Shown here: piece after piece, positions 3,853 through 58,375 of the stretch
Numbering within the stretch: position 1 is the stretch's first letter
Layout: each line of letters starts with the position of its first letter
From: Mobula hypostoma
Lineage: Eukaryota
Direction of reading: 5' to 3'
Length of the DNA stretch: 64,000 bases
Assembly: GCF_963921235.1 (NCBI RefSeq)
Contig: NC_086097.1
Span: 78,246,001 to 78,310,000, forward strand
Notes under the pieces: model-generated
Seen by the model: the letters and a program-made list of their open reading frames with translations, nothing else
What the model was told of the DNA's origin: nothing
Databases searched by the model: none
Program-made: the position numbers and the translations under genes

Positions 3853-3965
3853 AAAACAAATTGCTGGAGAAACTCAGCAGGCCAGGCAACATCTGTGGAG
3901 TGAAATGGACAGGTCAAGACATCTTCTTCTGGACTGGACCCAGCATCTGCAGTCTCTTGTGTCTC
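3853..3965. mobile_element. Short copy of the same repeat family
   Basis: tgctggagaaactcagcaggccaggcaacatctgtgga...cagcatctgcagtctcttgtgtctc. Confidence 0.6.
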
Positions 3966-5889
3966 CATTTTACAAAGTTTTGGGTTTCATTTCATTATCT
4001 GCTTCTCATTATGAATACGGCCACTTTTTATTTATTTGAAGTTATTTCAAGTTTCTTGCCAAATAGGACTATCATATACACTTCAACCATCGCTGTACCC
4101 ATAAGATCGGTTTCATTTTCCCAATGTTATGTACCCATTTACATAACATATCCTTACTCCATCTACTTCAGCAGATGTGTGATCTCTTATCTCTTGAGCT
4201 CAAAAGTTTGTGTATTTGTTCTATTTCCACCGCCTGTCATCCTATAAAGTTCTCTGCTATCTTTTGCTGCAGTCTCCATTGCAGCCGATGGGTGAATCTC
4301 AGAAGTCCTTGGTGAAGTCGCATCTAGTGGTTAAGGCTTATCAGAGGCTTATGGTGAGAAGAAGCTATGTTTTGTATCCCAGGGCAGGGTCAATTCTAAG
4401 AGATACACGCTCAGAGAATGTTGCATTCCCCACGCCACACGCACACACAACCTGTCTCTTTTACTTCATGGCTGCCGACACCCATTCATAAGTAGACACT
4501 CGATAAGAGAGGTATACCACTCTGCTCAGGGCGAATACGGCACGGGAATCCACGTGAGCAAGAGGTTTTTGAGGCAAATAGTTACTCGAGGACAGTGATG
4601 CACTGAGAGTTATTTTCCTTCTCTCTCCTTACCCCATTCAATATTTTTTCATCGACCGCACGTGGTTAGAAAGTAAAATATCAGCGCCTTAGTTTAAAAT
4701 TTTACTGAATAGAACAAGGAATTCACACGAATTGCGGAATAAATATATTTGCGTTTGGGAAAAAAAAATCTCCTCTAAACCGATCGATGAGGGCATAACG
4801 GTGCTTAGATACAATTAAAACCCATCTGCTAGAGGAAGAAATTGCATTGATGAAATATTTGGCCGCGCGTAAGACTTGGGAATGAGTGTTGGGCTCGGGG
4901 CATTGATACAGGGTGGTGGTGGCGGGGTGTCAGACATTCATGCCGTGCCATAATATTCTGAGGAAGCAGATCAGTTCTGTCTCTACTTCAACAGCCAAGA
5001 AAAAAATGCACCGACGTCAAAAAGTATTTCCTGGATCAGATTTTTCCCCAATGACGTATGGCACAACTGAAAAACCAAATAAGTAGAATAGCAAAGAAAT
5101 CGAATTGATATGATTGAGTCCATTTACGCACATAGAATTTATTGAAAATATAGTTTCTGCGCCTATAAAGTAACATCACGAGCATTTCAAATTGTTCTGT
5201 GATTCAGAAATGCATTCATTACTCTCCACTCCTTGTGTCGCTTAACTAAATAAATAAAAAGTCCAGGTCTCTGTTTGCTCGATCAATGTGTTAGGTGAAT
5301 GCATTCAAAGACAATTTTCTGGTTCGGGACTCATGAAGTGGAGGTTGAACTCGCGGTGCGAGGTACCCGTTCCGTCTCACTCGGAGGTGAGTCACCGAAA
5401 CTCCAGTCGGATATTGCGCACCGCTCGAAATAAGGTGACACACTTCCCCCTAGTGGCTGATTCAAAATCAATCCCCAATCTCCACAAGATCCGATGGACT
5501 GACAAATTATAACTTTTGAAGTACTAAAACACATTAATAATTGACTGGAAACGCACAAATTAGTTGGCATATTTTACGTTCTTTTCCTTGAACATTTCAC
5601 CTAATTTACATGATCGAAGACGTAAACTACTTTAACGCAAGGTCTTATGATTTTGTTAAACTAAGTCAATATGTGTATGTGTTGTGCGCGTGGCTGCTAA
5701 AAATGACTGGGTTAAGGCGAAAATATGATCAATTGAGCAAGGCTCAACCTGGCTCGAATCTTTCTGTCATATTATATGAGTATATTGGCTCCAGTCCACT
5801 GGAATCCGCCTAATTGCTTTCCTCGCCGCGGTCTGCCTCCTTTGGAACTGTATCCCTCTTGTTGTGAGGTAACTGAATAAACACAAGCT

Positions 5890-5955
5890 CGCTTCCTCCC
5901 AGGCTGCCGGTGATTGGCAGATGCTGAATGCAAGGAATGCAAAAGGGTATTTAAA
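5890..5955 (+). promoter_or_regulatory. THBS1: THBS1 core promoter: ETS-like GCTTCCT, inverted CCAAT (GATTGG 5912-5917), tandem TEAD-like GAATG/GGAATG (5926-5939), TATA-like TATTTAAA (5948-5955)
   Basis: Motifs read directly, in a CpG-rich stretch ~380 nt upstream of the ATG. The order matches my recollection of the mammalian THBS1 promoter. Confidence 0.8.
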
Positions 5956-5979
5956 GGAGCCGCAGTCGGGCTCCACGGT

Positions 5980-6193
5980 AGTAGCGATCGCCGGTACCCT
6001 CAGCTTCAGGAACTGCTTCTGCACAAGTGGCTAAGCGGAAAGGCAAGCATCGCTCCAAGTCTTTGGTTACTCAGGCTACCCGCTTCTGCACTAGAACTTG
6101 TTCCATTTAGGATCTGTCACTGGCACTTCTTGCTTTACGCGGAACTATTACAGTTGATACCGTTCAGTTCATCCGGAGATTACAAGAGTACTG
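5980..6193 (+). other. THBS1: Probable non-coding exon 1 (5'UTR); TSS approximate
   Basis: Starts ~25-30 nt after the TATA. Donor CTG|gtcagt at 6193/6194; acceptor ttttatgctag| at 6311 opens the ATG exon (6312). Mammalian THBS1 has a non-coding exon 1. Confidence 0.6.
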
Positions 6194-6332
6194 GTCAGTA
6201 AAAGTTAGGCTCTAATAACACAGCTAACGAATTGCATTTTATTTGTTAAAACTGATTTCACTGTGGGAAATTATAAGCAGCTAAAACAATTTCACCCCTC
6301 TTTTATGCTAGGTAGCGAGCCCCTGTTCTAAA

Positions 6333-19268
<12,936 letters not shown>

Positions 19269-28325: not shown

Positions 28326-28550
28326 GCAACAAAAAATCTGCTCGAGTAACTCAGCAGGTTGAGCAGCATCTGTGGGAGGCGGGGAATTGTCGACATTTTG
28401 GGTCAAAACCCTGTATCAGGAACTCATGCAAAGTTTCAACCCACAACATCAACAACTCTTTTCCTCCCAAAGATACTGCTCAAACTACTGAGTTCCTCCA
28501 GCAGACTGCTTGTTGCTCCAGATTTCAGCATCTTCAGTTTCTTGTGTCTC
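28326..28550. mobile_element. Palindromic copy of the Penelope-like terminal repeat family
   Basis: Inverted arms; minus-strand degenerate core CTGATAC-AGGG-TTTTGA-CCC-AAAA-T-GTC-GAC at ~28389-28419. Confidence 0.7.
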
Positions 28551-40439: not shown

Positions 40440-40930
40440 CACTGTGCACGGCATTGGCCTCTTTATTTAAGGGAGGATATTAATGCATTAGAAAGAGTTC
40501 ACAAAAGGTTTATTGGAAAGCTTGGTCACTTTAGCATTCTAACCTTGGGAGTTTAGAAATGTATAAGGGGACTTGATTGAAACATATAAGATTCTAATGC
40601 GTTGCAAGAGTTTACAGATTTTGAATCAGCTGAGAGAAAAGAATTACACTGCTGGAAGAACTCAACAGGTCAGACAGCATCTATAGAGGAAATGTATTGT
40701 CCATTTTTTGAGTCTAGAACTTTTATCTGTAGCAACATTTTTGCTTCAGAGGATCATCCTCAAAGGGCAGTACAAAAAGAGTCTTTGAATGCTTTAAGGC
40801 ACATGCAGAAAGAAACTAGGTAAGTATGGAGTAACAGGTTACCACCTTGGCAGGAGTACTGAGCTGAGGTTATAGTTCAATCTTTCATTGTCTTATTAAA
40901 TGGTGGACTAGGCTGAGAAGATGTGGCATA
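40440..40930 (+). mobile_element. Old CR1-like fragment containing a degenerate Penelope-type repeat (~40640-40725)
   Basis: CR1 motifs interrupted by tgctggaagaactcaacaggtcagacagcatctat. Confidence 0.5.
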
Positions 40931-42598: not shown

Positions 42599-44985
42599 TG
42601 TTAGGTTTGTGGTACTGGGAAGCCAGGTGGCCAGGAATAACACACACAAGAGATGGAGAGGTGAGGAACAAATGTGCAGCTATTTATTTTACTTGTAAGT
42701 CATCCACCCATAATGCCTTCTCACATTATATTCAGTATGTAACACACAGGGAAGCTCGGCAGCAAATCATAAGTGTCAAAATATACATGAGTACATAACA
42801 TAGCCCTCCCCCCAAAAGGTTTCTCCCTCTTCTCCAGCCAGTCCAATGGCTGAACTATTAACATTCAATTGAGTAATCATCAAATTTGACAAACAACAAT
42901 CATTTTTTTCTAAACTAGAAAAGCGGGTAGACTGCCTCTATTCCCAGACAAAACCCTGGGGATTATTCTGCCCATGTGCTGAGATTTTGGTCACTAAACT
43001 AGAGATTCAATCTGCCTGGAGGCTCTCTGTTCCTGTGAAGGTACCAATGACCTGAGGATGATGCCAACATTTTATCCCTTCAGGGTGTATGTACAGTATA
43101 GATCATGGCTTGGGTACTGCAGTATCAGTAGGGGACATCTCAGAAAGTGCAGGTAATGGGAGAGCACTGGCTGTGTCAGTTGATATTAACAGAAGTTCTG
43201 AAGTCATTGTCTCAGAATCCGGTCCCACTTCTGCAACTGGATCTGGATTGATCTGTTTGTGTTGGTTTTCAATAGCCTGAAAAGTGGGCAACAGCTGATC
43301 AACATGCCTTCTCCAGATGTTGTGATTACTAATTTCCACTGGGTACGATACAGGACCAGTTTGTGTCACCACCATTGCAGGTATCCACTTTGCTCCAGAA
43401 ATGTAGTTCTGGGCAAGTACTCTCTCTCCTCCTGTGAAACTTCTGTACAGCAATTTGGCACATTTCTCTGCTTGCGCTTTCTATTCATTTCTGTTCATTC
43501 ATCTGTTTGTGTTTTGGCATCTCAGCTGGTCAAGCCAGGTGCAAAACAGTTTTTTCATCAGTACAGTTGCTGGAACCATTTTGGTGGCGGTGGTATGTCA
43601 CAAGAAAGTGCCAAAACACTGGTTAAGAGATCCACTTCCCACTACAGTCTTGAGGGCTTGTTTCATTCTTTGTATGAATCATTCTTCAAGGTTATTAGTG
43701 GCTGGATGACCGAGCATCACACACAAAATGCTGGAGGAACTCAGCAGGCCAGGCAGCATCTATGGAAAAGAGTAAACAGTTGATGTTTCAGGCTGAAATC
43801 CTTCATCAGGGTCAGAGGGCAGCAGAGATCACAGAGGGAGAGCAATGAGAAAGGGTTTCACTAAACTCCCATTGAAGGGAAGATTTAAACTTCTTCAGGG
43901 TAGGCATCCCCGGAAGAGACTTCTCAGTGTAGAACCCCAATCACAAACAAGAGAAAACCTGCAGATGATGAAATCTGAGCAACACACACAAGATGCTGGA
44001 AGAATTCAGCAGAGCAGTCAGCTTCTATGGAAAAGAGTGAACAGTTGACGATTTGGACTGAGACCCTCCATATGGACTCAGTGGCCGGATGATATGGTAC
44101 TGGACTGATGTGCCAAATATCATTTGCTTCCATGAATGTCTTGAACTCTTCATACAGGAGTTGTGGGCCATTGTCACTTACAATTGTTTCAGCATCGCCA
44201 CAGACTGTGAAATAGATTCACCTTCCTCTCGATTCCTTTTTTGAAATCTAAACCTCTCAGCAATAATCAAAGATTTAGGTGAATAGTGGTCCTTTCAAAT
44301 TTTAACTATGTCTTCACAGGGCTTATTACCAGGCTTAGCAGGATGCACTAGACGGCATAATAAATTAAATGTGTTTGTACCCATCATGGTCAGAAAAGTT
44401 AGAAGATGAGTATCTTCTGAAATTTGATTGTCCAGTGCAAAATATTCAAATCTTTCAGTAAATGAACTCCATTTCTCTGTCATTTCATCATACAGGCTGT
44501 ATTTCCAAACATTGTTGCTATTTTCAAACACAATCATGTTCCAGAAAAGTGGACTAGTCTTATCCATTTCTCTCTCTCCCTCGTATTTGTTTTATTTAAC
44601 TGTCCCATTTTCATTTTCTTCCCTCAGATTATTCTCTCCCAGTGCTTCCTGCAGCTGTTTACAGTTCCCTCAACCACGTTACACAGTGGTACACCACCAG
44701 CATTGCACAGGGGCTTCTCTGGCCAAACAGAACAAAACAATAAATATCGCATGAGGACCTGTCACCTAATCACCAGCTATTTTGTTTCTGGTACTGGAAA
44801 GCCGGGTGGGTGGCCATGAAAACATTCACGAGAGACGGAGAGGTGAGGAACAAACGTGCAACTGCTTATCTTACTTGTAAGTCATCTACCCAGAATGCCC
44901 TCTCACATTATGTTCAATAATACATAACACACAGGGAAGCATGACAGCAACCCGTAAGGGTCCAAATGTACACGAATACATAACA
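42599..44985 (-). mobile_element. Internally deleted Gypsy/Ty3 LTR retrotransposon with both LTRs
   Basis: ~200-bp direct repeats 42599-42800 and 44778-44985, reading TGTTATGTA... on minus. PBS-like TGGTGA lies 2 nt after the 5' LTR; PPT GGGGGGAGGG at 42804-42813. gag remnant 44295-44567; integrase remnants (IVSDNGPQ, PYHPAT, WRRHVDQL). Confidence 0.88.
43710..44079 (-). mobile_element. Penelope-like tandem terminal-repeat insertion (two hammerhead motifs) inside the Gypsy integrase
   Basis: 13-bp TSD AGTGGC(T/C)GGATGA at 43697-43709 and 44080-44092; two direct copies of the repeat separated by a ~130-nt spacer. Confidence 0.8.
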
Positions 44986-49070: not shown

Positions 49071-49205
49071 GAGTCCTGCTGAAGGGTTTCGGCCCGAAAT
49101 GTCGACTGTGCTTTTTTCCATAGATGCTGCCTGACCTGCTGAGTTCCTTCAGCATTTTGTGTGTGTTGCTCGGATTTCCAGCACCTGCAGATTTTCTCTT
49201 GTTTG
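49071..49205 (+). mobile_element. Single copy of the Penelope-like terminal repeat, with hammerhead motif at 49072-49107
   Basis: AGTC-CTGCTGA-A-GGG-TTTCGG-CCC-GAAA-T-GTC-GACT. Confidence 0.8.
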
Positions 49206-56929: not shown

Positions 56930-57375
56930 TAAAAAAGGTCAAAAATAGTTGATGACACAAAGATAGGTAGGAAAGAAAGTTGTGAAGAGGAGATATAGAT
57001 CCATGAAAAAGACAGCTAGATTAAGTGATTGGGCAAAATCAGGCATATAAAGTGGAAAATGTGAGGTTTTTTTATGAAAACTATCAACAAAGTTTATGTA
57101 AATAGTGAGAGATTGAAAACTCTGTGATGTAAAGGCATCTGGGTGCCCTGTTTCATGATTTACAGAAATTAAAACAGTCATACTGCAAGTAATTAGGAAA
57201 ACTAACAGAATGTTCAGTTTCAACATAAGGGGAACCAAATACAAAAGTATGAGTCCTGACGAAGGGTCTCGGCCCAAAACGTCGAATTTACCTCTTCTTA
57301 GAGATGCTGCCTGGCCTGCTGCGTTCACCAGCAACTTTGCTGTGTGTTACAAAAGTATGAAGGCTATGTTTCACT
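56930..57375 (+). mobile_element. Old CR1-like fragment hosting the 95-nt hammerhead insertion
   Basis: RGTKYKS-(insert)-MKAMFHY resembles the CR1 ORF2 motif RGIEYKS.EVML.LY. Confidence 0.6.
57253..57347 (+). mobile_element. 95-nt hammerhead-bearing insertion with 13-bp TSD
   Basis: TACAAAAGTATGA at 57240-57252 and 57348-57360; core CTGACGA-A-GGG-TCTCGG-CCC-AAAA-C-GTC. Confidence 0.85.
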
Positions 57376-58375
57376 ATAAATTGGCTGATGACACAGCTAT
57401 TGTTGGCAGAACTTCAGATAGTCACGAGGGGGTGTAGAGGAGTGAAATAGATCAGCTGTTTGAGTGGGGTCACAACAACAACCTTGCACGCAACATCAGT
57501 AAGCCCAAGGAATAGATCGTGAACTTCAGAAAGGAGAAGTCGAGGGAAACACACCAGTCTTCATTGACAGTGAGCGGTTTCAATTTCCCGGGTGTCAACA
57601 TCTCTGAGGATCTATTCTGGGTCCAACATAGTGATGCAATTACAAAGAAAGCATGACAGTGGTTATATTTCATTAGAAATTTGAGGAGACTTGGTATGTC
57701 ACCAAAGATTCTCACAAATTTCTACAGATATACCATGAAGAGTATTCTAACTGGTTGCAATGCCATCTGGTATGGAGGAGCCACTACACAGGATTGGAAA
57801 AAGCTGCGAAAAGTTGCAAACTCAGCCAGCTTCATCATGGGCACTGGCCTCACCAGCATCAAGGACACCTTCAAAAAACAATGTTTCAAAAAGGTGGCAT
57901 CCACCGTTAAGGCTGCCATCACACAGGACATGACCTCTTCTCATTGCTACCACCAAGGAGGTACAGGAGCCTAGAGACACACACTCAACGTTCTAGAAAC
58001 AGCATCTTCCCCAATGCCAACAGATTTCTGAATGGACAATGAACCCATGTACACTATTTTTTTCTTTTATTTGCTCACCTTTTGCGCTACTTATTCAATT
58101 TATTTTTATATATACTGCCTATCTCTTATTGTCATTTGTAGATTTTTAATTATTATGTATTGCCATGTACTGCTGCTACAAAACAACACATTTCACATCA
58201 CGTGAAAGTCTGCAGATGCTGGAAATCCAAAGCAACACGCTCAAAATGCTGGAGGAACTCAGCAGGTCAGGCGGCATCTATAGGAATTAATAAATAGTCA
58301 ACATTTTGGGCTGAAACCCTTAAGGACAGAATTTCATGACATATGCCAGGGATTTTAAACCTGATTCTGATCCTG
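57375..58375 (+). mobile_element. Rex1/Babar-like LINE 3' kb
   Basis: KLADDTAIVG (RT motif), LTNFYRYTMKSILTGC; tail cctgattctga. Confidence 0.85.
58196..58330 (-). mobile_element. Penelope-like terminal repeat copy inserted in the Rex1 tail
   Basis: ctgcagatgctggaaatcc...aaaatgctggaggaactcagcaggtcagg...ttttgggctgaaaccctt; ATTTCA duplicated at 58190-58195 and 58331-58336. Confidence 0.75.

Follow-up and report, generated by a model that had tools for sequence, protein, structure and literature searches.

A 95-nt hammerhead-bearing insert in the genome of Mobula hypostoma is very probably the terminal tip of an abundant Penelope-like element

Minimal type-I hammerhead ribozymes are carried by pseudo-LTRs in metazoan Penelope-like elements (PLEs), where they are mostly solitary and derive from truncated PLEs, and in fish they occur in Neptune, Poseidon and Xena (Cervera and De la Pena, 2014; PMC4209133). 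The main text of that study names no cartilaginous fish among the hammerhead hosts, and its supplements may list one. In Anolis carolinensis, the tail of Poseidon insertions has been explained by two internal start sites of the reverse transcriptase (RT) (Frangieh et al., 2024; PMC11167929). A CX2-5CxxC linker is a mark of Neptune and Nematis (Craig et al., 2021; PMC8557442), and a PLE origin of retrozymes has been argued in a preprint that includes one chondrichthyan (Li et al., 2026; 10.64898/2026.07.22.740005). Further background literature comprises PMC6765202, PMC2377424, PMC7229834 and PMC13000458. Both the motif and the class of element that we describe are already known; our search of the main-text literature found no report of a hammerhead-bearing PLE in sharks or rays.

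The window analysed here is a 64,000-nt stretch of the Mobula hypostoma genome (NC_086097.1, 78,246,001 to 78,310,000), in which the original prediction described a 95-nt mobile unit with a perfect 13-bp target-site duplication (TSD). This description is confirmed: TACAAAAGTATGA is found in exact copies at 57240-57252 and 57348-57360, bracketing an insert at 57253-57347, and the chance of such a 13-mer match at a fixed place is ~5e-8 from base composition. The outer A and T of the duplication also match element sequence, so each border of the insert is ambiguous by 1 nt. Throughout, position +1 is window base 57253 and position 0 is 57252. The features of the locus are as follows.

56942..57373, + strand: decayed LINE remnant, which we take to be CR1-like, that receives the insert and continues ~13 nt beyond the TSD
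57240..57252, + strand: left copy of the TSD, 13 bp, whose last base is also the element's first base (position 0)
57253..57347, + strand: 95-nt insert, a 5'-truncated terminal piece of an apparently Neptune-type Penelope-like element, which begins at the 5' edge of the hammerhead and ends at the first of the family's two 3' ends
57252..57255, + strand: helix I 5' strand (AGUC), read from the sequence
57256..57263, + strand: CUGACGA box with the additional A between positions 9 and 10.1, a feature of minimal PLE hammerheads
57264..57275, + strand: helix II (GGGU/GCCC with a CUCG loop)
57276..57283, + strand: GAAA box (here AAAA), the palindromic ACGU that replaces helix III, and the GUC triplet, with the cut predicted after 57283
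57284..57288, + strand: helix I 3' strand, damaged (GAATT versus the family's GACTG)
57289..57347, + strand: element sequence from the hammerhead to the first 3' end, the putative first internal RT start site
57348..57360, + strand: right copy of the TSD, an exact repeat
49073-49166 (+), 43718-43810, 43982-44067, 58247-58321, 28348-28421, 3858-3894, 40650-40685 (-): older relatives of the terminal repeat, 72-86% identical

The sequence that follows the hammerhead, described earlier as a tail, is not poly(A)-like and consists of the 59 nt of the element that lead up to the family's first 3' end; the optional ~37-nt tail of the family is absent from this copy. Nor does the insert split a CR1 reading frame, as had been claimed. 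The host remnant, labelled CR1 in the original prediction and here, is 60-68% identical to other copies and carries stops in each of the three frames, which left no intact frame to split; its register runs on for only ~13 nt beyond the TSD, where another LINE remnant takes over. This second remnant, of RT type and on the + strand at 57374-58190, cuts off the first one 13 nt past the TSD and is presumably Rex1/Babar-like. Seven older relatives of the terminal repeat also lie in the window, as given above.

In the window copy, the parts of the hammerhead lie where they had been placed, including the G12>A change at a CpG, but helix II is better taken as four pairs (three G-C plus U-G, with the CUCG loop) than as the three first described. 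Neither G12 nor helix I is intact, helix I carrying two changes of its own. The G12 column holds G in 106 of 113 young copies, and the C>A change in helix I has 96 exact matches in the genome versus 21,571 without it, which marks it as a private mutation and rules out a sub-lineage with a dead ribozyme marked by this change. Given how rare they are in the family, G12>A and the helix I changes arose after insertion. G12 is important for the hammerhead, and with G12 and a helix I pair lost the ribozyme of the window copy is likely to be inactive. Scoring against Rfam hammerhead models, which had been suggested as a check, gave no match for either the window copy or an intact copy, even at E<=10.

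We believe that the insert is very probably a fragment, the terminal tip, of an autonomous PLE. The same 95 nt terminate 3.5-kb elements that encode an RT, a C-X4-C-X2-C linker and a GIY-YIG domain, and many of the 30 loci inspected extend on both sides of the 95-nt segment. The predicted link to an element with RT and GIY-YIG is thereby borne out, as a frame with both domains lies upstream of many copies and a random sample yielded a complete repeat-ORF-repeat copy (L065:1345-5214; G000:C1:110001345-110005214). That copy carries hammerheads at 1606 and 5117, 3.5 kb apart, within one 13-bp TSD, and its ORF is broken by frameshifts and stops. Partial tandems that form pseudo-LTRs were seen in this copy, in L114 and in 27 of 44 ORF-bearing copies. 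The Pfam matches of the ORF fall below the cut-off (RVT_1, E 0.056; GIY-YIG, E 0.11), its Atlas neighbours are RVT_1-bearing clusters (score 0.98) and GIY-YIG clusters (0.97), and a PDB sequence search found nothing. The linker seen in the translations agrees with the CX2-5CxxC pattern of Neptune and Nematis, and on this motif, rather than on a tree, we class the parent element as Neptune-type.

The expected abundance of the family is equally borne out. Searching the 3.48-Gb genome turned up 1,220 candidates, of which the 40 that were scored are 94-100% identical, and a 48-nt stretch of the element has 20,138 exact genome matches. In 510 kb of random DNA, 23 copies were found at >=87% identity (24 at >=85%), which corresponds to ~1.6e5 copies in the genome. 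A related but older family, whose own 48-mer gives 1,135 exact matches, has GIY-YIG sequence upstream in 4 of 30 copies (L212-L241). It shares sequence with the young family only from position 0 onward and has a different, pyrimidine-rich upstream part; judged by eye, many of its copies appear to start near the edge of the hammerhead.

The hammerhead of the family is, in line with the original prediction, of the minimal PLE type: it has CUGANGA and GAAA boxes, helices I and II, the extra nucleotide after position 9 and the palindromic 15.2-16.2. Both boxes are fully intact in 67 of 113 young copies and in 3 of 33 older ones, and the helix pairs are kept in most copies, the first pair of helix II being G-C in 36 and G-U in 73. 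Column +23 (hammerhead position 11.1) has T for C in 74 of the 113, whereas the mirror G>A change is found in only 7; this likely reflects a sub-lineage with a G-U first pair and not CpG decay alone. Changes in the family hammerhead concentrate at CpG sites and no compensatory pair changes were seen among the 113 young and 33 older copies, a pattern that neutral decay of an intact master would produce. In its minimum-energy fold, an intact copy forms a 38-nt rod (-13.5 kcal/mol) in which the CUGACGA box is paired to the cleavage strand, against -9.5 kcal/mol for the hammerhead fold. A swapped hammerhead dimer is possible at -17.9 kcal/mol, and the lowest-energy dimer is at -35.3 kcal/mol. Since the rod outcompetes the hammerhead in predicted energy, the family ribozyme may require help to be active, as reported for the Anolis element. 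Monomers derived from cleavage would start at +32, where only 1 of 120 mapped copies starts, and we therefore reject the idea that the short copies begin at the cleavage site.

These 120 copies were picked because they match sequence downstream of the hammerhead exactly, and comprise 90 of the 100 hits of one search (the window copy left out) and the first 30 matches to the 48-nt stretch. Their 3' ends fall at two sites ~37 nt apart, with 69 at or before +110, 50 at +111..+145 and one in a tandem. An inverted partner is present in 56 copies. Eleven of these pairs were excluded because the 3' end of the partner failed to map to the terminal region; of the 45 pairs with both ends mapped, in which one locus is counted twice, 43 have one arm of each 3' end class. 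In 48 of 55 pairs the two arms fall in the same length class, short or long (p 1.5e-8). The family thus combines an optional 30-40 bp tail with an inverted, 5'-truncated partner, and the two 3' end classes represent the PLE tail and match the two internal RT start sites described for Anolis (PMC11167929). TSDs were found for 65 of the 120 copies, most often of 13-14 bp (26 of 65), the length class of the window TSD, which supports the predicted target-primed insertion. One inverted pair (L008, ~1595-1670) is inserted in a TTAGGG-like stretch that forms its TSD.

Other arrangements were met in a second sample, selected at the start of the ORF (L242-L311; 65 copies from 512 hits), in which 21 of the 65 copies end at +206..+439, mostly at +266..+351. 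This is perhaps a third 3' end class, marking the end of a short transcript. One locus (L272; G000:C2:157815500-157819000, minus strand) holds a head-to-tail array of slightly over four units of 310 bp, each running from -2 to ~+308, with a hammerhead in each full unit and a 13-bp TSD. The array ends at the first family 3' end and is retrozyme-like, made from this PLE. Smaller partial tandems occur in L242 (341-bp unit) and L254; the two small tandems other than L272 start at -53 and -127, so that the start is not uniform.

At the 5' side, 52 of the 120 copies end in -5..+35, one at +40, 17 in -300..-6 and 50 farther upstream, an excess in -5..+35 over -300..-6 with a binomial p of 2e-33. The peak lies at the first two bases of the hammerhead (0/+1), while most short ends lie deeper (+3..+35 in 33 of 52). 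Short copies make up 5 of 23 in random DNA versus 53 of 120 in the pattern-selected sets. Exact genome counts of the intact motif drop from 4,033 when extended to +2, to 3,842 at +1, 3,554 at 0, 3,314 at -1 and 3,145 at -3; the losses are 4.7% (+2/+1), 7.5% (+1/0), 6.8% (0/-1) and 5.1% for the two steps after that combined, part of every loss being point mutation. The base before position 0 differs from T in 240 intact copies: it is G in 94 and A in 50, although the genome is AT-rich (p 5e-9), and subtraction leaves 96 with C, a number inflated by transitions. Inspection of 30 G cases found 25 true junctions and 5 point changes. Where a G case has a TSD, the G lies outside it in 5 of 6, with an inverted tail remnant accounting for one of these, and the window copy also has G before position 0, inside its TSD. 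In contig runs, loose ends at 0 and +1 were seen in 3 of 4, partly from older families with a different upstream sequence; contigs cannot show RNA starts, and these ends are not counted as support. A 5' breakpoint peak at helix I was not reported in the main-text literature that we searched.

We favour a reading in which the tip of the PLE was made by internal priming of the RT and run-off at a capped RNA start, and give it a probability of roughly 0.6. Based on the work on the Anolis PLE (PMC11167929), the element protein would nick the target and start reverse transcription inside its own RNA, at two sites and on uncleaved RNA. An RNA starting at position 0 (the A of TTAGTCC) would leave only ~95 or 135 nt upstream of these start sites. 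The cDNA would run off at position 0 and be joined to the target, giving inserts that consist of a hammerhead plus a tail and are flanked by 9-15 bp TSDs, and the RT would copy the cap as an extra G before position 0. The window copy would then have decayed after insertion through G12>A and the helix I changes. In full elements, position 0 lies within what we take to be an initiator-like word (YYANWYY). The Penelope element of D. virilis has a TATA-less initiator promoter in its repeat.

The RNA start as the explanation of the 5' edge, taken by itself, we consider only slightly better than an even bet. The G excess before position 0 is what would be expected if the RT copies a cap; it could also come from a preference of the RT for untemplated G, and the R2 RT adds untemplated G and T. 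The edge is a window of ~3 nt and not one base, which argues against an RNA start, as do the deeper position of most short ends and the smaller share of short copies in random DNA. Moreover, of the 44 copies of the second sample that continue into the ORF, 27 pass the hammerhead into upstream sequence, 15 break off at +36..+200 and 2 have their start in -5..+35, so that only 2 of the 29 that reach the hammerhead stop there. Full-length cDNAs therefore do not stop at position 0, and the simple model in which all complete cDNAs end there is rejected. The RNA-start model consequently needs either that cDNAs jump to the terminal repeat or that the short class has a short RNA of its own, the latter being hinted at by the copies that end at +206..+439 and by the 310-bp array.

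A less likely account, to which we give about half the credence of the RNA start, has the same PLE fragment with its edge set by structure, the cDNA being stopped, trimmed or joined at the base of the 38-nt rod (-1..+2). The rod is indeed the fold of lowest energy for an intact copy, positions that pair in the hairpin are joined at some inverted junctions (for example 6 with 28, 22 with 13), and the passage of ORF-bearing copies beyond position 0 shows that longer templates exist. However, those long cDNAs cross the same hairpin unstopped in 27 of 29 cases, many inverted arms end at 0 and join positions that are not partners, simple insertions abut their TSD at 0, and trimming offers no reason for the G excess. 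An RNA start remains our preferred explanation of the edge.

The original prediction saw in the insert a member of an independent non-autonomous family, SINE- or retrozyme-like, with short masters and dimeric self-cleavage. This is now very improbable and largely refuted already. An abundant short class with a preferred 5' edge would suit it, as would the 310-bp array with its hammerhead in every full unit and its TSD, and PLE-derived retrozymes have been reported in vertebrates, with one chondrichthyan included (Li et al., 2026). However, 81 short and 76 long copies have their variants in common across 129 columns (lowest p 0.0036, no longer significant once corrected), and the short copies are not more diverged than the long ones (2.8% versus 3.5%). 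A head-to-tail arrangement was found in 0 of the 81 short copies; a hammerhead in at least two consecutive units, as in a retrozyme, was seen only in the separate L272 array. Four patterns for Pol III A and B boxes had no match in positions 0..135. Diagnostic changes and a fixed length, as in a SINE lineage of its own, were not found in these copies: both ends vary, the two 3' sites of the PLE are used, and starts at +32 are confined to the single copy mentioned above.

Least likely of all, and by a long way less so than a structural edge, is that the edge is a 3' splice site and the short copies come from spliced or splice-arrested RNA, as with the intron of D. virilis Penelope: that intron reaches up to the 5' end of helix I, the hammerhead of the young and older families is preceded by a pyrimidine tract with a terminal AG, and the 310-bp array joins at -2, right after CAG, but the short copies lack a shared 5' exon, several directly abut the TSD, and the peak at 0/+1 includes the AG itself. 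A spliced leader on the short copies is likewise ruled out, as they have no upstream exon in common.

The value of this family lies in its sample size, as ~1e5 young copies expose the steps of PLE insertion through their junctions. These show two 3' start sites, one per arm, a ribozyme cut that is hardly used, and a 5' stop at the first base of the ribozyme. If that stop is the start of a capped RNA, it would locate the promoter of a vertebrate PLE, explain the solitary minimal hammerheads that litter animal genomes, and provide a testable route from PLE to retrozyme. We tentatively propose a more specific version, which we regard as doubtful: that tens of thousands of hammerhead-plus-tail inserts are run-off cDNAs of a capped ~300-nt RNA that starts at the first base of helix I, with its cap copied as the extra G, and that the same RNA, by template jumps or through a circle, gives rise to the 310-bp hammerhead arrays. 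If true, these arrays would show the birth of animal retrozymes from PLEs without ribozyme cleavage. For annotation, pieces of the 95-nt type belong under PLE fragments and not under SINEs.

Compared with the motifs in the main text of Cervera and De la Pena (PMC4209133), the Mobula hammerhead has the same CUGANGA and GAAA boxes, extra nucleotide after position 9 and G10.1-C11.1 pair, the same helix I of 4-5 bp and palindromic 15.2-16.2, and likewise no helix III. Its helix II has 4 pairs, versus 7-8 in Schistosoma. The copy number is far higher than in coelacanth and Xenopus: the Mobula family alone has 4,033 exact intact 44-mers, versus the 4,000-9,000 motifs of all families given there for those genomes. 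As in Anolis Poseidon (PMC11167929), two internal 3' ends lie 30-40 nt apart downstream of the hammerhead, and insertion would proceed from uncleaved RNA, with no sign of ends at the cleavage site. Unlike Poseidon, the Mobula element carries the linker of Neptune/Nematis and has its first in-frame ATG ~170 nt after the start of the hammerhead rather than inside it, and the 5' breakpoints of its family peak at helix I, with an excess of G, a pattern that the main text on Anolis does not describe. Like the canonical EN+ PLEs of Craig et al. (PMC8557442), the element has a single ORF with an RT, a CX2-5CxxC linker and a GIY-YIG domain at the C terminus, forms pseudo-LTR partial tandems, and has an inverted 5'-truncated partner and a tail at one end; it differs from what is described there in its clear TSDs of 9-15 bp, and we noticed no microsatellite bias. 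In contrast to non-LTR retrozymes, the 95-nt unit is solitary, its hammerhead is minimal rather than canonical, and its ends are not at the ribozyme site. With these retrozymes, as presented in PMC7229834 and Li et al., 2026, it nevertheless shares the type-I hammerhead and the PLE origin, and the L272 array fits their definition.
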